Source: Escherichia phage UE-S1
Strand: one strand, 5' to 3'
Length of the DNA: 64,000 nucleotides
Sequence record: ON568341.1
In this document: in pieces, positions 33,617 through 58,031 of the stretch
Numbering within the stretch: the first letter of the stretch is position 1
Layout of the letters: each line of letters opens with the position of its first letter
Made by a program: the position numbers and the translations under genes
The notes under the pieces: generated by a model
Seen by the model: only the letters and a program-made list of their open reading frames with translations
Database searches by the model: none
Told to the model about the DNA's origin: nothing

Positions 33617-33645
33617 TTGACAGTACTTAACAATTGTAGTATCAT
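33617..33645 (+). promoter_or_regulatory. Sigma70-like promoter (TTGACA-N17-TATCAT)
   Basis: Canonical -35 TTGACA at 33617-33622 and -10 TATCAT at 33640-33645. Confidence 0.45.
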
Positions 33646-33679
33646 ACGTGTAAATAAAGAAAAGAACTCGGAGAAAATC

Positions 33680-35275
33680 GTGTTAGAAGAAATCAAGAAG
33701 TTTTTATCAGAGAAAAATGTTCGTGGTGTTAAATCTGCTCTGCAAGCAAAATCTGTATACATTGAATTCCTGCGAGAGATGTTTGGTGATATCGATCTTA
33801 ATGAAATGATTTATATGGTATTGAATGATATTACTTCAGTGCCGAATGCTGAATGTGGTGACAAAGCTAAGTTTATAAGTATTACCGAAGGATATTCTTA
33901 CAAGTGCAATAAACCATTTCAAGGAAAAGGAAAATGCCTTATCTGTTGCTCCGCAGTTGCTAGGAAACGTAAAGAAACTTACAAAGAAAAAACTGGTTAT
34001 GATAACCCGGCACAGAATCCAGAAATTCAAAAGAAAATAGGGTATACCAATGAACAACGTTATGGCACTCGTATTGCTCAACAATCTGAACAAGTAAAGC
34101 AGAAATCAATAGAAACTAATATTAAAAAGTATGGTGTTGTTCATCCATCACAGTTGGAAAGTAATAAACAGCAACGTTTACAAACGGTACAAGAAAAGTA
34201 TGGTATCAATAATGTATGGCAACTTAATAAAGGTCTTAGTGCACGTTATGAACAGTTTAAAACACGATTTGAACAGGATGGTAAATTTACTCTTTTAAGT
34301 GATGAATCCCATTATGATAATAGCAATGACGCAACTCATGCAATCATGCACTGGAAATGTAATGAATGTGGTAATGAGTTTGATAAAGTTGCTCTTTGCT
34401 TACGCTGCCCTAAGTGTGAACCATATTCATCCAGTACTGAAGAAGTAAATCTTTATAATTACATTACCTCTATCTATAGTGGTGTGGTTATTCAAAACAG
34501 CCGCAACATCATCAAAGGTAATGAGATTGATATCTTCATCCCAGAATTGAAACTTGGTATTGAGTTCAATGGTGAGTATTGGCATCGTGATGAAGTTCGT
34601 GGTAAAAACTATCATCAATCCAAATACTTCAAAATGAAGGAAGCAGGATACAAACTTATCACTATCTATAGTAATGAATGGTCAAATAAAACTGAAATTG
34701 TTAAGAATCGTTTGAAAAGTTTGATTAGTGTGGATAGTAAAATCTATGCTCGTAAGTGTGAAGTTAGATTGGTTGCCCATGAAGAATGTGATAAATTTTT
34801 GTATGAACATCATATTCAAGGACCATGCCAATCATCAATCAAACTTGGACTTTACTATAATGATGATTTGGTTGCTTTGATGACATTTGGTGCACCACGA
34901 TTTAACAAGCAGTATGAATATGAATTACTGCGTTATTGTTCTAAAGGAACAGTTGTTGGGGGTGCATCGAAACTGTTAAAACATTTTGAACGTATGTATC
35001 TTCCTAAATCTCTTCTTTCATACGCCGATATGAACTGGAGTACTGGTAATTTGTATGAAAAAATTGGTTTTACTTTAGAAGAAGTAACTCAACCTGGTTA
35101 TTTTTACTATGATAGAAAAAACGAAGTTGTTTATTCTCGCCATCAATGCCAAAAACAAAAACTTATTAAAAAATATAATTTTGATAGTTCTATGACAGAG
35201 AAGGAAATGACAAAAGAATTAGGATACTTTAGAATCTATGATTGTGGTAACTTAGTTTATAAAAAGATTTACTAA
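33680..35275 (+). CDS. Free-standing homing-endonuclease-like protein: zinc ribbons, tandem KYG repeats, PD-(D/E)xK (Vsr/DUF559-like) core and GNAT-like C-terminal domain
   Basis: Cys pairs CLICC and CLRCPKCE. Four tandem repeats of about 20 aa. Nuclease core EIDIFIPELKLGIEFNGEYWH. C-terminal VVGGASKLL ... LYEKIGF resembles acetyltransferase motifs. Start set to GTG 33680 after GGAG. Sits after gp23, the position of segD in T4. Confidence 0.5.
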   Translation: MLEEIKKFLSEKNVRGVKSALQAKSVYIEFLREMFGDIDLNEMIYMVLNDITSVPNAECGDKAKFISITEGYSYKCNKPFQGKGKCLICCSAVARKRKETYKEKTGYDNPAQNPEIQKKIGYTNEQRYGTRIAQQSEQVKQKSIETNIKKYGVVHPSQLESNKQQRLQTVQEKYGINNVWQLNKGLSARYEQFKTRFEQDGKFTLLSDESHYDNSNDATHAIMHWKCNECGNEFDKVALCLRCPKCEPYSSSTEEVNLYNYITSIYSGVVIQNSRNIIKGNEIDIFIPELKLGIEFNGEYWHRDEVRGKNYHQSKYFKMKEAGYKLITIYSNEWSNKTEIVKNRLKSLISVDSKIYARKCEVRLVAHEECDKFLYEHHIQGPCQSSIKLGLYYNDDLVALMTFGAPRFNKQYEYELLRYCSKGTVVGGASKLLKHFERMYLPKSLLSYADMNWSTGNLYEKIGFTLEEVTQPGYFYYDRKNEVVYSRHQCQKQKLIKKYNFDSSMTEKEMTKELGYFRIYDCGNLVYKKIY

Positions 35276-45699: not shown

Positions 45700-51960
<6,261 letters not shown>

Positions 51961-51976
51961 AGAGTGATATAATGAT

Positions 51977-52005
51977 GTTTGTCAAGGTGATGAGCCTTGA
52001 CAAAC
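51977..52005 (+). promoter_or_regulatory. 11-bp perfect inverted repeat (candidate operator / RNA hairpin) upstream of the gp32 gene
   Basis: GTTTGTCAAGG-tgatgag-CCTTGACAAAC, immediately after a TGATATAAT -10-like element at 51965-51973. Confidence 0.45.
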
Positions 52006-52020
52006 AGAGTTAAAAAATAT

Positions 52021-52048
52021 GGGACAGTATAAAAACCTGTGCTATAAT
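52021..52048 (+). promoter_or_regulatory. Early sigma70-like promoter (GGGACA-N16-TGcTATAAT)
   Basis: GGGACA at 52021-52026 and TGCTATAAT at 52040-52048. Followed by an 88-nt AU-rich leader. Confidence 0.5.
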
Positions 52049-52136
52049 GTAAAACGTTGAAGGAACAATTAAGTTTCTGAAACATTGAAGCCAATTAACA
52101 AATAACAAAGAAACCCCAATATCAAGGAAGAAATAT

Positions 52137-53189
52137 ATGAAATCTCTAGCTGAAATTCGTGCACACCTAAAAGCAGAACAAGAAAAAGCAGAAGCTCAAA
52201 AGAATGGTACATTTACTGGCGAGCGTAAAGCTGATTCGTTCTTAGCTTTCTGGAACGTACCTTATAACGAACCACTAAACCTACGTTTTCTACCAGATGC
52301 AGATGAGTCTAACCCATTCTTCTGGCGTGAACGTGACATGATTAACCTAACTTTCAATGGTGTAGTCGGTATGCACACTGATAAAGTTACCGTTCAAGTG
52401 CCTTGTAATGAAATGTGGGTTCCTAAATCTTGTCCGGTACTGAAAGAAGTACGTCAATGGTTCCAAAGTGCGAATGAAACAGGGAATGAAGAGCTAAAAG
52501 CAATGGCTGGTCGTTACTGGAAGAAGAAAACCTATCTAATGCAATGTTTTATTGCCCCTGATAGTGTTGCAGTAAAAGACGACATTGCACCAGAAAATCC
52601 AATTCGTCGAATTCTGGCTAACAAAGATATCTTTGATAAAGTTAAATCTATCCTACTAAACCCAGGTATCAAAGAATCACCAACTCACTACGTTCAAGGT
52701 CGTGATTTTGGTATTGTTAAAACTAAGAATGGTGGTGGTTATAATAGCTATGACATGTCACAATTCTCCATGTCAGAACGCCCACTCAACGAAGAAGAAC
52801 TTGCAGCAATTGAAAAATATGGTCTATTCAATCTAAATGATTTTATGCCAAAACAACCAACTCCAGAAGAGTTAAAAGCAATTGAAGAAATGTTTGAAGC
52901 ATCTGTAAATGGTGAAGCATATGATCCAGCACGTTGGGCATTTGCATATCGTCCAGCAGGTGTACCAAAACCTAATACTGGAACTGTTGCTGAATCAAAA
53001 CCAACTCCTGCTCCAGCACAACAAGAGTCAGTACCTGCATCAGTAGCACCTACTGCACCAGTTACACCAGCACCACAAGCTGCTCCAGTAACTCCAGCAG
53101 CTACTCCAGCAGTAACCACTCCTGAAGCACCAAAAGAACAACTATCTGCATCTGCACTAGTTGCTCGTTTGAAACAACAAGGTAAATAA
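52137..53189 (+). CDS. gp32: Single-stranded DNA-binding protein gp32
   Basis: LRFLPDADESNPFF parallels T4 gp32 IRFLPSKNDEQAPFA. GGGYNSYDMSQFSMSE parallels VSGFSNYDESKFLNQS. Pro/Ala/Thr-rich C-terminal tail. Confidence 0.85.
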   Translation: MKSLAEIRAHLKAEQEKAEAQKNGTFTGERKADSFLAFWNVPYNEPLNLRFLPDADESNPFFWRERDMINLTFNGVVGMHTDKVTVQVPCNEMWVPKSCPVLKEVRQWFQSANETGNEELKAMAGRYWKKKTYLMQCFIAPDSVAVKDDIAPENPIRRILANKDIFDKVKSILLNPGIKESPTHYVQGRDFGIVKTKNGGGYNSYDMSQFSMSERPLNEEELAAIEKYGLFNLNDFMPKQPTPEELKAIEEMFEASVNGEAYDPARWAFAYRPAGVPKPNTGTVAESKPTPAPAQQESVPASVAPTAPVTPAPQAAPVTPAATPAVTTPEAPKEQLSASALVARLKQQGK

Positions 53190-53258
53190 TAGTTTTTGAA
53201 AAGGTAAGGGGCAACAGAGTTTGCCCCGTTTTATTTCATGAAATTCAAGGAGCGAATT

Positions 53259-54377
53259 ATGAAAATGACAAGTGGTTTTGCGAACATTCTTAAAAACAGT
53301 ACTGGTAGTGTTAAAAAGAATACTGGTGTTAGTGTTGGTTTTCATGATCCAGATACATGGGTTAGCACTGGTAACTATGCACTAAACTATCGTATCAGTG
53401 GATATTTTGACCGTGGTATCCCACTAGGAAAAGTAACTATGTTTGCTGGTGAATCAGGTAGTGGTAAATCTTTTATCGTATCTGGTAACATTGCACGTGA
53501 AGCTCAAAAACAAGGCATCTTTGTTGTTATGATTGACACAGAGAACGCATTGGATTCTGATTGGCTTCAAGCACTTGGTGTTGACACTTCTGAAGATAAA
53601 CTGTTGAAAGTCAATATGGGTATGATTGGTGACGTTGCAAAATTCACCTATGAGTTCATTGAAGGCTATCGTAAAGAATACGAAAATACACCTAAAGATG
53701 AACGTCAAAAAGTATTGTTTATTATTGATTCAATTGGTATGCTAAACACTGAAGTAGCCAATGATCAAATGAAAGCGGGTAATCTTAAAGGTGATATGGG
53801 TCATAAACCCAAACAGCTTAAAGCATATATCACAAACTGTGTAAACTCTATTGGTTCATTGAACATTGGCATGGTTTGTGTGAACCATTCATACGAATCT
53901 CAGGACATGTTTAACCCAGATCCTAAAGTTTCAGGTGGTAGTGGTTTGATTTATGCTTCATCTATGGTTATCGCAATGGGTAAATTAAAACTTAAAGAAG
54001 ATGAAGATGGAAATAAAACTTCCGAAGTAAATGGTATTCGTGCTAAATGTAAAGTCATGAAGACTCGTTACAACAAGCCGTTCGAAGATGTAGAAATTAA
54101 AATTCCTTGGGATAAAGGTATGGACCCACGTAGTGGTCTACTAGATATGTTTGAAAAATACGGTCTAATCACTAAATCAGGTAACCGTCTATTGTATGTT
54201 GATATTGTAACTGGCGAACAGATTCTAAAATATCGCAAAGAGTGGATGCGTAATGAAGATTCATGTCTTGATTTGGTAATGCATCAATTTAAAAATCATC
54301 CTTTGATTGAAGAAGTTAAAGAAGAAGAAAAAGGTGATGAAACTTTTGGTACTGATGTTGATATTAGTGAGGAATAA
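53259..54377 (+). CDS. uvsX: UvsX recombinase (RecA-like)
   Basis: Walker A GESGSGKS. MDPRSGLLDM parallels T4 UvsX IDPYSGLLDM. Start ATG 53259 after AAGGAG. Confidence 0.9.
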   Translation: MKMTSGFANILKNSTGSVKKNTGVSVGFHDPDTWVSTGNYALNYRISGYFDRGIPLGKVTMFAGESGSGKSFIVSGNIAREAQKQGIFVVMIDTENALDSDWLQALGVDTSEDKLLKVNMGMIGDVAKFTYEFIEGYRKEYENTPKDERQKVLFIIDSIGMLNTEVANDQMKAGNLKGDMGHKPKQLKAYITNCVNSIGSLNIGMVCVNHSYESQDMFNPDPKVSGGSGLIYASSMVIAMGKLKLKEDEDGNKTSEVNGIRAKCKVMKTRYNKPFEDVEIKIPWDKGMDPRSGLLDMFEKYGLITKSGNRLLYVDIVTGEQILKYRKEWMRNEDSCLDLVMHQFKNHPLIEEVKEEEKGDETFGTDVDISEE

Positions 54378-54838
54378 TGAAACCTTGGCATTGGATTATC
54401 AAAGATGATAAATCTAAAATTATTGAAATGATTGAGTTCTTTAACAAAGAAATTGAAGAGGCTCGTTGTGAAGTAAAGAAGATTGGCATCATTGAAAAAA
54501 TTGCTCAAGAGATTCCTGGCTGGCATGAGACGCGTCTAAGCCAGCTTCAAGAACTTGAAGCAGTATTGGAAATGTTAGAAATTGAAATGCGTCAGATACA
54601 AGCCGAGAAGTTCAAATACTTTCTCGAAGGATACCGCCGTGCACTATCTTCATCTGACTGTAAAAAGTATGTTGAGGGTGATAAAGATGTTTGTGAGTTA
54701 GCAGAACTTATAAACGAGGTATCTTATATAAGAAATACATATTCCAGTATTGTTAAATCCTTAGAGATGAAAGCTTTTCAGTTAAACAATATTGTGAGAC
54801 TACGTGCCGCTGGTATTGAAGATAGCCGACTTGACTAA
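54377..54838 (+). CDS. Possible UvsY-like recombination mediator
   Basis: 153 aa, immediately downstream of uvsX. C-terminal ...LEMKAFQLNNIVRLRAAGIED weakly parallels T4 UvsY ...IKSRGFAIKHIQDMRAFEAGK. Confidence 0.3.
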   Translation: MKPWHWIIKDDKSKIIEMIEFFNKEIEEARCEVKKIGIIEKIAQEIPGWHETRLSQLQELEAVLEMLEIEMRQIQAEKFKYFLEGYRRALSSSDCKKYVEGDKDVCELAELINEVSYIRNTYSSIVKSLEMKAFQLNNIVRLRAAGIEDSRLD

Positions 54839-54854
54839 TATAAATTAAATAAAA

Positions 54855-54881
54855 GACAGTTTAAATAAAACTGTCTTTTTT
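54855..54881 (+). terminator. Rho-independent terminator
   Basis: GACAGTT-taaataa-AACTGTC followed by TTTTTT. Confidence 0.65.
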
Positions 54882-54897
54882 GTTAGGTAATACGGTT

Positions 54898-55617
54898 ATG
54901 GGTGCAAATAATAAAAAGCAAACAACAGAACAATTTATAGAAAAATCAAAATCAATTTATGGTGATATATTCTTATATGATAAAACAGTATATGTGAATG
55001 TAAATTCAAAAGTTATTGTAACTTGTAAAATACATGGTGATTATGAGCAATTTGTTAAAGTCCATTACAACGGTGCTGGATGTACTAAATGTTCAAGACG
55101 CTCCAAACATACAACTGAAACCTTCATTGAGGAAGCTAATAAAATACATAATGATAGATATAACTATGATAAAGTTGTATATGGCAAAAACAACAAGCAA
55201 AAACTCACTATAACTTGTAAAATACATGGTGATTTTTTACAAAGAGCAAATGATCATTTATCAGGAAAGGGTTGTATTAAATGTGCAATATCTAATAAAA
55301 TGTCCAAGGCAGTTAAAGACATACGTGACGTTTTGGATATGAAAAATGTATCGTATGAAATGGAAAAAACGTTTGATGATTGTAAAAATATACTTCCTTT
55401 GAGATTTGATTTTTATCTTCCAACGTTTAATATGTGTATTGAATACGATGGTCTTCAACATTTTGAATCATGTGGTTGGGGCGGTGAAGAAAAACTAAAA
55501 CTAACTCAGAAAAATGATAAAATAAAGAATGATTATTGTATTCAAAATAATATTAAATTGTTGAGAATAAAATACGATGAAGATCATATTAAAATTGTTC
55601 TAGAAAATATATCATAA
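54898..55617 (+). CDS. Free-standing homing-endonuclease-like protein (tandem zinc-ribbon repeats plus PD-(D/E)xK Vsr/DUF559-like core)
   Basis: Two approximately 55-aa repeats (TTEQFIEKSKSIYGD ... CKIHGD ... GCTKCS and TTETFIEEANKIHND ... CKIHGD ... GCIKCA). Nuclease core LRFDFYLPTFNMCIEYDGLQHFE resembles the EIDIFIPELKLGIEFNGEYWH core of the ORF at 33680. Confidence 0.55.
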   Translation: MGANNKKQTTEQFIEKSKSIYGDIFLYDKTVYVNVNSKVIVTCKIHGDYEQFVKVHYNGAGCTKCSRRSKHTTETFIEEANKIHNDRYNYDKVVYGKNNKQKLTITCKIHGDFLQRANDHLSGKGCIKCAISNKMSKAVKDIRDVLDMKNVSYEMEKTFDDCKNILPLRFDFYLPTFNMCIEYDGLQHFESCGWGGEEKLKLTQKNDKIKNDYCIQNNIKLLRIKYDEDHIKIVLENIS

Positions 55618-55657
55618 GGACGCATATCGCGTCCTTTTTCTATGTGAGATTAAAAAA

Positions 55658-56476
55658 ATGACAAAATTAAATGAATTCTTATCAAATATAGCAGTTCTTG
55701 ATACTGAAACCACTGGTGTTGAAAGTGATGATGATATTATTGAATTTAGTATCTCATATCCATATACTTCACATGAAAACATTGATACTATTGATAACTA
55801 TACATTGCGATATAAACCACTGAAAGATATTCCACCAGAAGCATCGGCTGTTCACTTTATCAGTACTGAGGATGTAGCTAATTGTGTTGGGTATAAAGAT
55901 GATTTAGATAACATAGATGCACTTATGGGATGCCGTAAGTATTTTGTTGGTCATAATGTACAATTTGACCGTAGAATGATGGTAGATAATGAATATAAAT
56001 ATCGTAACTCAGTTTCACAGTACTTACTCGATGAAGATAAATGGATTTGTACTCTTCGTTTGGCTAAGAAAATGTTTGCAGAAGATACCGAATATAAAAA
56101 CTTAACTCTAAGTTATTTGTGGTATAAGTTTGGATGCCATCGAGATGTTCACAGACCTATTAATGCTCACGCGGCAAAAGATGATGTATTCATGTGTTAT
56201 CAGGTTCTAATCAAATTGGTTGAAATTGCCATCGAACGTGGTCATATTGATTCCAATGGGGATATTGGTGAACAAATAGTAGCTTTTTGTAACACCCCAA
56301 TGCGTTATCAATTCATGCCATTTGGTAAACATAAAGGTGAGCCAATGAATACAGTACCATTGAATTACATTGAATGGATGATCACTAATAGTGACATTTT
56401 AGATGCAAGTAACCCTAACTGTGATAAAGATTTAGTATATACATTTGAGTACGAATATAATACTCGAACTAATTAA
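55658..56476 (+). CDS. DEDDh 3'-5' exonuclease (DnaQ/ExoX-like) with ExoX-type C-terminal domain
   Basis: Exo I VLDTETTG, Exo II HNVQFD, Exo III HAAKDDV. C-terminal FGKHKGEPMNTVPLNYIEWM resembles the ExoX C-terminal motif. Confidence 0.7.
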   Translation: MTKLNEFLSNIAVLDTETTGVESDDDIIEFSISYPYTSHENIDTIDNYTLRYKPLKDIPPEASAVHFISTEDVANCVGYKDDLDNIDALMGCRKYFVGHNVQFDRRMMVDNEYKYRNSVSQYLLDEDKWICTLRLAKKMFAEDTEYKNLTLSYLWYKFGCHRDVHRPINAHAAKDDVFMCYQVLIKLVEIAIERGHIDSNGDIGEQIVAFCNTPMRYQFMPFGKHKGEPMNTVPLNYIEWMITNSDILDASNPNCDKDLVYTFEYEYNTRTN

Positions 56477-56491
56477 TAAAGGTAATCATGG

Positions 56492-57976
56492 ATGAAAACT
56501 TGTAAGTTAACCTTATTGGATGAGGTGAATTGTAAATTTGAGGGACTTGATCCCTCAATTAGACAAAAGATGATTCGTGCAACTGAATATGTGTTACCAT
56601 ATGCAAAGTTCACACCAGCAGGACGTATTGGACGTTGGGATGGTAAAGTTCAGTTTATGAATTTAGGTGGAACAACTTATTATCATATGTTAGATAAGTT
56701 ATTGCCTATTCTTGATGAAGCTAAGATTGACATTGAATTGGTAGATCATAGGGTAGATTATGGATTTAAATTTGACCCTATTGATGAAGATATTTTTAGT
56801 GATGTTGTATTCGGTGCAGGACACCACATGGAAGGTAAATCCATAAAACTACGTGAACATCAAGTTAATGCGGTTAATGCATGTTTGGCTAATCCACACG
56901 GATTACTATTGGCAGCTACTGGTGCAGGTAAAACACTCATTACTGCTGCATTGTCAAAGAAAGTGCAAGAGTATGGACGTTCTGTTATAATAGTACCAAG
57001 TACTGACTTAGTACAACAAACATATGATGACTATATTATGTGTGGGTTGGATACTGGTATGTTCTATGGTTCACAAAAAGATTTTGGTCACCAACATACT
57101 ATTACAACGTGGCAATCATTTAACTCTCTATGGAAGAAAACCAAGAAAGGTGAAATTGAATTAACTGAACAAGATGTTAATGATTTTATCGATGGAGTAG
57201 TTTGTGTTATCGTTGATGAGTGTCAAGGTGCAGGTGGTGACGCATTAGTTCAAGTACTATCTAAAGTTATGAACAACGTACCATTACGTTGGGGTCTTAC
57301 TGGTACAATTCCGAAAGATCCGGTTGTCGCCGCAAAAATCAAATGTAATGTTGGTGATGTTATATTTAAAATAACTGCAAAGGAATTACAAGATAAACAG
57401 ATACTAAGTACATGTAATGTAAATTGCATAAAACTAAAAAGTAGTATGAAGTTTGCATCATATGCTGAAGAGTTGAAATACTTAGTAACTGACAGAGATA
57501 GAATGGCATATGTAGCATCATTGATATCTGCGTTATCTGAATCAGGAAACACTTTAGTTTTAGTAGATAGGCTTGAAGCGGGTGAGTTGTTATGTGAATT
57601 TTTAGGTATTCCCAAATCAGAATTTGTTCGTGGAGAAACTAAAAAGAAAGATCGAGAATCATCATATGGTGAAATTCGTTGGGCTGATAATAAAATACTT
57701 ATTGCGACATACGGTGTTGCCAGTACTGGTATCAGTATTTCAAGGTTATACAATGTAGTATTGATTGAGCCAGGAAAAAGTTTTGTAAGAACTATACAAT
57801 CAATCGGACGTGGATTACGCCGAGCAGAAGATAAAGACCATGTGGAAATATATGATATTAGTGGTTCTAATAAGTATAGTGCAAAACATTTACGTGAACG
57901 TTTAGCATATTATAAGGAAGCACAATATCCGCATAGTATAATAGATGTTAAAGATTGGGAAAACACAGCGGGATAA
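56492..57976 (+). CDS. uvsW: UvsW helicase (SF2)
   Basis: RIGRWDGKVQFMN parallels T4 UvsW RYGNWDGRIRLLD. Walker A ATGAGKT, DECQ box. ATYGVASTGISISRLYNVVL parallels ASYGVFSTGISVKNLHHVVL. Confidence 0.9.
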   Translation: MKTCKLTLLDEVNCKFEGLDPSIRQKMIRATEYVLPYAKFTPAGRIGRWDGKVQFMNLGGTTYYHMLDKLLPILDEAKIDIELVDHRVDYGFKFDPIDEDIFSDVVFGAGHHMEGKSIKLREHQVNAVNACLANPHGLLLAATGAGKTLITAALSKKVQEYGRSVIIVPSTDLVQQTYDDYIMCGLDTGMFYGSQKDFGHQHTITTWQSFNSLWKKTKKGEIELTEQDVNDFIDGVVCVIVDECQGAGGDALVQVLSKVMNNVPLRWGLTGTIPKDPVVAAKIKCNVGDVIFKITAKELQDKQILSTCNVNCIKLKSSMKFASYAEELKYLVTDRDRMAYVASLISALSESGNTLVLVDRLEAGELLCEFLGIPKSEFVRGETKKKDRESSYGEIRWADNKILIATYGVASTGISISRLYNVVLIEPGKSFVRTIQSIGRGLRRAEDKDHVEIYDISGSNKYSAKHLRERLAYYKEAQYPHSIIDVKDWENTAG

Positions 57977-57985
57977 ACCCGCTGT
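57965..57985 (+). terminator. Hairpin overlapping the uvsW stop (weak terminator)
   Basis: ACAGCGGG-ataaa-CCCGCTGT. Only a short T tract follows, then a TGATATAAT -10-like element. Confidence 0.3.
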
Positions 57986-58031
57986 TTGTGATATAATGTG
58001 TCATATGTAAACAACAAGGATGTGGAATAAA

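Follow-up and report, generated by a model that had tools for sequence, protein, structure and literature searches.

A putative mobile Vsr-like homing endonuclease gene with zinc-ribbon repeats between uvsY and exo of a jumbo coliphage

The locus and its signals

The window, as we call the whole 64,000-nt stretch of DNA analysed here, comes from the genome of a jumbo coliphage in the Asteriusvirus (PBECO4/121Q) group; over 52000-58000 it shares 96% identity with PBECO4 and about 20 other records. This region carries the recombination cluster gp32-uvsX-uvsY-exo-uvsW, the members of which were assigned with Pfam, and an intact ORF of 239 amino acids occupies the slot between uvsY and exo. The features of the locus are as follows.

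52137-53189, gp32-like ssDNA-binding protein, recombination cluster
53238-54377, UvsX/RecA, recombination cluster
54377-54838, UvsY, recombination cluster
54819-54838, + strand, variant uvsY end of six codons and stop (GAA GAT AGC CGA CTT GAC TAA, ...EDSRLD*), which travels with the cassette and forms its left edge
54851-54884, + strand, cassette-borne, terminator-like hairpin with a GACAG...CTGTC stem and U-tract, parting uvsY from the endonuclease gene
54885-54888, + strand, Shine-Dalgarno-like AGGT, read from the sequence
54898-55617, + strand, endonuclease ORF
54919-55107, + strand, zinc-ribbon repeat 1 (aa 8-70; ligands C43, H46, C62 and C65)
55108-55299, + strand, zinc-ribbon repeat 2 (aa 71-134; ligands C107, H110, C126 and C129)
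55300-55614, + strand, Vsr-like nuclease domain (EDxHD-type, PD-(D/E)xK superfamily; motif V139, D171, D184, H188, D207)
55616-55636, + strand, resident terminator hairpin GGACGC...GCGTCC with U-tract, at the right edge of the insertion and overlapping the endonuclease stop codon
55658-56476, RNase_T-type exonuclease (exo), 3' neighbour of the endonuclease ORF
56492-57976, UvsW-like helicase, beyond exo

The reading frame is open without interruption from a TTG at 54880 to 55617. We regard the ATG at 54898 as the more plausible start because it is preceded, 9 nt upstream, by AGGT, a signal conserved in phage TH47 and in the metagenomic contig L018, and because the TTG sits within the U-tract of the upstream hairpin; the TTG was rejected on this ground. 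The gene is intergenic, has its own translation signals, lies outside any intron or intein and is flanked by two hairpins. The upstream one (54851-54879) folds at -12.4 kcal/mol with a z-score of -4.0 and stands directly 5' of the gene, in agreement with the preliminary description, which had placed the gene immediately after a terminator. The same GACAG/CTGTC hairpin is found 5' of the homologues in TH47, L018, GAP32, fENko-Kae01 and the metagenomic contigs L012 and L013, and empty sites do not have it. The downstream hairpin (55616-55636) folds at -13.5 kcal/mol (z -3.7); in PBECO4, ph0011, A4, Ecwhy_1, EJP2, RaK2 and fHe-Yen9-04, all of which are empty, the GGACGC terminator directly follows uvsY.

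Zinc-ribbon repeats, nuclease domain and a second nuclease gene

The two N-terminal zinc-ribbon repeats of the preliminary description are present, being 47% identical to each other across 64 aa (BLASTP E 4e-19), although each measures about 63 aa and not the approximately 55 aa first given. The C-x2-H...C-x2-C ligand set of each repeat is invariant or nearly so among 70 homologues, and the repeats are presumed to be DNA-binding modules. PF05265/PF14311 (DUF723/DUF4379) is recorded for nearly all homologues; the protein's own Pfam match to DUF723 is sub-threshold (aa 82-130, E 0.0087). It does show the make-up of this CapR-like group, with a repeated unit of about 60 aa and a four-ligand putative zinc site. 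The homologues in GAP32 and fENko-Kae01 have three repeats, and the window protein matches their repeats 2 and 3 plus the nuclease, so that their first repeat is missing from it: repeat 1 is 70% identical to repeat 2 of the GAP32 protein, GAP32_274, and the corresponding figure for repeat 2 against repeat 3 of either homologue, GAP32 or fENko, is 56-62%. The two zinc-ribbon repeats also share an exact 22-nt stretch of DNA, ACTTGTAAAATACATGGTGATT (direct repeat, 55021-55042 and 55213-55234), which could reflect gene conversion between them. Repeats of this kind are a substrate for repeat gain and loss in zinc-finger homing endonuclease genes (HEGs) (PMC10055350), and by analogy the 22-nt repeat would be a substrate for change in zinc-ribbon repeat number here.

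The protein matches the profiles phrog_559 (5e-59) and phrog_9084, 'homing endonuclease' (5e-27), and 2886 homologues were found. AlphaFold2 gave an unusable model from the single sequence (pLDDT 31.7) and one of mean pLDDT 92.9 from a 70-sequence alignment. In this predicted structure the catalytic domain adopts the Vsr-like variant of the PD-(D/E)xK fold: Vsr was the top structural match, with other PD-(D/E)xK nucleases lower, and Foldseek concurred. Taylor et al. (PMC3239194) defined the EDxHD family by residues E170, D196, N208, H213 and D222 of I-Bth0305I and counted the Hef-type phage endonucleases among its members. These residues correspond to V139, D171, D184, H188 and D207 of the window protein, a correspondence drawn from profile alignments via the second nuclease of the window and I-Bth0305I (PDB 3R3P) and not from structural superposition. 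Four of the five motif positions are thus conserved, the Glu position being Val139. Residues D171, E182, G185, H188 and D207 are invariant among the 70 homologues, and position 139 is Glu in 61 of them and Val or Ser in the other nine. Among the copies examined in their genomic context, this position reads Val or Ala-Val (SKAV or SKVV) in GAP32, in fENko-Kae01 and in the lineage of the window and L018.

HMMER searches of PDB sequences with the endonuclease alone and with the family profile gave no true match, and hhalign of the family against the 3R3P sequence alone gave a probability of 2.4%. As there is no direct match between family and structure, the link to EDxHD enzymes comes from the predicted structure and from profiles matched in two steps, the endonuclease core to the Hef-type core and this in turn to 3R3P. 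A search of NCBIfam returned nothing relevant, and sub-threshold matches to Pfam Thioredoxin_3 and NCBIfam YjiA/GTPase were set aside as CxxC-driven noise. Although GAP32_274 and phrog_559 are labelled 'HNH endonuclease', Pfam found no HNH motif or domain in the window protein, and its nuclease fold is Vsr-like, not beta-beta-alpha-metal. We rejected an HNH identity, and the label is probably a propagated mis-annotation. A role in defence was also dropped, since the PADLOC models matched only weak PD-DExK fragments and nothing significant. The combined zinc-ribbon/nuclease architecture gave 313 matches in BFVD at E <= 0.001, some of them under the name homing endonuclease or that of a group I intron protein, and it is widespread in phage and giant-virus proteomes.

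The preliminary description held that this ORF (P1 in the following comparison) shares its nuclease core with a gene at 33680 and called the two paralogous cassettes with different DNA-binding parts. The second gene (P2) is a Hef-type gene at 33617-35275 (+) encoding 552 aa. The shared core was borne out by profile-profile alignment (hhalign probability 98.1%, E 1.4e-13, 84 columns, 18% identity), which rules out that the two are unrelated, and both proteins match phrog_559 (5e-59 and 6e-86) and phrog_9902 over corresponding regions. Pairwise BLASTP of P1 against the P2 core segment gave nothing significant (E 0.14), a method that is uninformative at 18% identity. Homology of the cores at profile level therefore stands and close paralogy does not; P1 and P2 are distant relatives within one fold family. 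The P2 core profile matches 3R3P directly (E 2e-8; hhalign 96.6%), and P2 is therefore a Hef-type EDxHD protein. The DNA-binding parts do differ, P1 having two zinc ribbons and P2 a DUF7487 domain, a single zinc ribbon and a C-terminal domain of about 170 aa. The profile of the P1 C-terminal domain matches residues 292-328 of P2 weakly (9 bits), and a 155-aa piece of P2, used as a query for homologues, gave one match. The last motif position, Asp in I-Bth0305I and P1, is His in the P2 core (aa 269-385) and forms part of a conserved 'YH..K'. No further paralogue was found by tblastn of P1 against the 64,000-nt window.

The slot 3' of the major capsid gene, in which P2 lies, is itself variable: a P2-like gene is present only in ph0011 (83% identity), and other relatives have GIY-YIG/T5orf172 genes, DUF4379-containing genes, 'endonuclease' genes or a shorter spacer. 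This slot is a second homing-endonuclease hotspot.

Cassette boundaries, distribution and transfer

Comparison with empty sites delimits an inserted cassette of about 790 bp (approximately 54819-55610), which comprises the variant uvsY end, the hairpin and nearly the whole ORF; the last codons and stop of the ORF (ATCATAA) lie within sequence common to empty sites. The empty junction reads ...GGT ATT GAG GAT GCA CGT TTA GAA TAA TTATCATTAAG-GACGCATATCGCGTCC. In the window and TH47 it reads ...GGT ATT GAA GAT AGC CGA CTT GAC TAA, after which come the hairpin, the ORF and ...ATATCATAAGGACGCATATCGCGTCC. The end of uvsY thus differs from that of PBECO4 and ph0011 (...GAG GAT GCA CGT TTA GAA TAA) by eight substitutions in 18 nt, against 98.4% identity over the rest of uvsY, and 54819-54838 is identical to TH47 at 19 of 20 positions. 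As to co-conversion, the part of uvsY that moves with the gene is limited to its final 20 nt, and no co-converted tract longer than about 10 nt is visible on either side.

A query spanning uvsY, the ORF and exo matched 79 phage records, and occupancy was counted among the 60 listed. In this survey of presence and absence, which the preliminary description had called for, the cassette is missing from 56 of the 60 (two aligned pieces with a span of about 1.3 kb). The four occupied records represent three phages, namely TH47, GAP32 (two records) and fENko-Kae01. The cassette is therefore polymorphic for presence at one fixed locus among collinear relatives, with precise junctions.

Identity of the window to TH47 is 95-97% over the cassette and 83-88% over its flanks; compared with empty PBECO4, the window flanks are 96-98% identical. 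For the window and TH47, synonymous divergence (dS) is 0.046 in the endonuclease gene and 0.87 in exo, a 19-fold contrast that requires the cassette to have moved laterally, and recently, into one and the same site of two backbones that have diverged. Phage ph0011 is empty, and its uvsY and exo differ from those of the window at just three positions. Because this near-isogenic phage lacks the cassette, gain in the window lineage is a simpler explanation than loss, which would have had to restore the empty allele precisely. Such patchy distribution and recent transfer into the same site support the reading of the gene as a selfish homing element put forward at the outset.

Across 54200-56476 (the uvsX 3' end, uvsY and exo) the window differs from ph0011 by three substitutions outside the cassette, and outside this near-identical block of about 2.3 kb the two diverge immediately, by 5-20%. 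The block looks like a recombination mosaic with the endonuclease site at its centre and the exo/uvsW boundary at its right edge. A third close copy of the gene is found on contig L018, which has a TH47-like backbone. Between TH47 and L018 the gp32, uvsX and uvsW flanks are 98.6-99.6% identical, the endonuclease gene 96.4% and the 5' part of uvsY 94.8%; the cassette region of this pair has either evolved faster than the backbone or been re-acquired.

The uvsY|exo slot also holds more distant homologues, three-repeat proteins of 55-66% identity, in GAP32 (Mimasvirus), in fENko-Kae01 and in the two contigs L012 and L013, so the site is occupied across genera. Homologues of 46-49% identity lie elsewhere, one beside ter genes and one beside a UvsW helicase gene, and that of phage Muenster is within an NAD-metabolism cluster. 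At position -4 of UvsY, Ser (AGC/AGT; ...EDS(R/H)...) is found in all seven occupied alleles and Ala or Ile in each of the seven empty ones examined, in a sample that is small and phylogenetically non-independent. Ser may go with occupancy because it alters the target and so confers immunity, or the occupied alleles may simply descend from one segment that was transferred along with the gene.

Homing, competing explanations and related systems

We propose, with a probability of roughly 0.8, that the ORF is a mobile, free-standing homing endonuclease gene of the Vsr-like type. In the model we favour, the two tandem Cys-His-Cys-Cys zinc-ribbon modules would bind specific DNA and position the C-terminal nuclease domain, and this metal-dependent domain (D171, D184, H188 and D207) would make a double-strand cut in genomes lacking the gene during mixed infection. 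UvsX, UvsY and gp32, encoded alongside, would repair the break from the carrier genome, and the cassette of about 790 bp would be copied into the empty site. Carriers would be immune through splitting of the site by the insertion and rewriting of the last six uvsY codons. The cut would most likely fall at the uvsY stop codon and terminator or close beside them; the candidate target of 35-40 bp is GAGGATGCACGTTTAGAATAATTATCATTAAGGACGC, and the empty allele would be expected to be cut near GAGGATGCACGTTTAGAATAA/TTATCATTAAGGACGC. The target is placed there because the travelling tract is short, the slot is shared across genera and the rewritten uvsY end co-occurs with the gene. In T4 and other phages, however, free-standing endonucleases often have their cut site hundreds of bases away from the gene that encodes them (PMC2988022), and a target at or next to the insertion point is for this reason a guess, to which we give slightly less than even odds.

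Activity of the enzyme at present is somewhat better favoured, and we think it probable, by a modest margin, that the protein still cuts. Two points speak against it, the Val139 at the Glu position and the presence of two zinc-ribbon repeats as compared with three in the same-site relatives, so that the enzyme could be weakened. These points feed the most serious competing explanation, that the gene arrived by homing but now cuts poorly or no longer and awaits deletion. Among the three close copies (window, TH47 and L018), dN/dS is 0.17-0.53, which is 3-10 times the value of 0.05 for exo, and the TH47 copy carries 13 amino-acid changes. Even so, dN/dS is below 1; in all three independently sampled copies the ORF is intact and the other catalytic residues and all eight zinc ligands are unchanged. 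The Val/Ser variant is shared by the nine homologues in 70, including GAP32 and fENko-Kae01, and so is an old state and not a recent lesion, and Taylor et al. say only that the Glu 'might also participate' in catalysis (PMC3239194). The dS contrast also indicates a transfer recent enough for activity at that time to be likely. We consider decay unlikely on balance.

It is more doubtful still that the gene has been domesticated as a sequence-specific DNA-binding protein or nuclease, serving in the exclusion of competitors, in CapR-like regulation of the recombination genes or in the processing of intermediates. Its location amid gp32-uvsX-uvsY-exo-uvsW, some purifying selection and the filling of the same slot in several genera would suit such a role, and there is precedent in related zinc-finger modules that came to serve as repressors (CapR; PMC10055350). 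Target-specific homing, however, also predicts occupancy of one site across genera, and the gene is dispensable, given its absence from most listed relatives and from near-isogenic ph0011. Its own terminator-like hairpin insulates it, it is not integrated into the surrounding operon, and there was no significant match to a defence-system model. A Vsr-type mismatch-repair nicking enzyme for the repair of phage DNA is the least credible of these explanations and seems to us highly improbable. Vsr is the best structural match, JGI names several homologues 'very-short-patch-repair endonuclease' and recombination and repair genes adjoin; but those names are automatic and derive from fold-level similarity, identity to Vsr is just 14-16%, and Vsr lacks the N-terminal zinc-ribbon array, a feature of homing endonucleases. 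Patchy distribution and lateral transfer also argue against a repair function. Decay, domestication and mismatch repair all fit the distribution and divergence data less well than homing does.

A bolder form of the homing model is that this lineage cuts exactly at its own insertion point, like an intron-encoded enzyme, that carriers are protected by the rewritten uvsY C-terminus (the Ala-to-Ser codon) and that the active site works without the conserved Glu, perhaps by nicking one strand or by using its metal differently. We offer this as speculation that is unlikely to hold in full.

Both the EDxHD/Vsr-like homing endonuclease family and zinc-finger arrays of the DUF723/DUF4379 type in phage HEGs are already known, and the gene belongs to a known type of element, ordinary for phage biology, which leaves general views unchanged. 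The EDxHD prototype I-Bth0305I is intron-encoded and binds DNA via two NUMOD/HTH motifs, and its first motif residue is Glu (PMC3239194); the window gene is free-standing, without intron or intein, and its product has two zinc-ribbon repeats and Val at that position. Hef of phage U5 and the Hef-type proteins, including P2, are likewise free-standing phage homing endonucleases with a homologous Vsr-like core, and Hef is reported to cleave nrdB (PMC2988022). They differ from P1 in that the cores are 18% identical, the last motif residue is His instead of Asp and the insertion site is another one; P1 also lacks the DUF7487 and C-terminal domains of P2. The T5orf172/GIY-YIG HEGs (Barth et al. 2023, PMC10055350) have the same kind of zinc-finger module (CapR/DUF723/DUF4379) in variable copy number, although their nuclease domain is GIY-YIG-like and that of the window protein Vsr-like. 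Zinc-finger-array HEGs of this kind are free-standing in phages and lie at boundaries of genetic exchange (PMC10055350). Escherichia coli Vsr (PDB 1CW0/1VSR) is, by contrast, not mobile; this repair nickase consists of a single domain, which has a zinc site of its own and aromatic residues that intercalate, and it has no zinc-ribbon array.

The closest named relatives are GAP32_274 of Cronobacter phage vB_CsaM_GAP32 (L004, 3810-4718; 66% aa identity) and ENKO_309 of Klebsiella phage fENko-Kae01. They share with the window gene the uvsY|exo slot, the upstream GACAG hairpin, the Ser-containing uvsY end and Val at the Glu position. They differ in having three zinc-ribbon repeats (303 and 318 aa) as compared with two, and in abutting or overlapping exo without the GGACGC terminator, whereas the window keeps both hairpins. 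In the literature we found no description of the cassette for Asteriusvirus-type phages, and no cleavage data for any member of the zinc-ribbon/EDxHD subgroup. The locus offers a natural example of probable homing in jumbo (Rak2-like) phages, with a near-isogenic empty site, exact junctions and the marked dS contrast, together with a candidate target for this enzyme subgroup and a correction to the 'HNH endonuclease' annotation of the GAP32 homologue. The uvsY|exo junction is moreover a recombination boundary, which is relevant to comparing and engineering coliphages that are candidates for therapy.

Other elements lie nearby. The preliminary description had mentioned an intein endonuclease elsewhere in the genome, and this is consistent with LAGLIDADG_3 and Hom_end matches at about aa 284-364 of the large terminase ORF (47965-50625, +, 886 aa, Terminase_6N). 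The UvsW-like helicase gene of ph0011 is 2580 nt long (L003, 4233-6812) compared with 1485 nt in the window, owing to an insert of about 1.1 kb at window position ~56931, and the helicase gene of contig L012 (5034-6903) encodes a Hint domain, with a NUMOD3/TnsA-like ORF coming after the gene. The helicase gene of the window is uninterrupted, and divergence between the window and ph0011 is highest at 56600-57000 (33-46 substitutions per 200 nt). This site in the helicase gene is probably an intein-type insertion hotspot.
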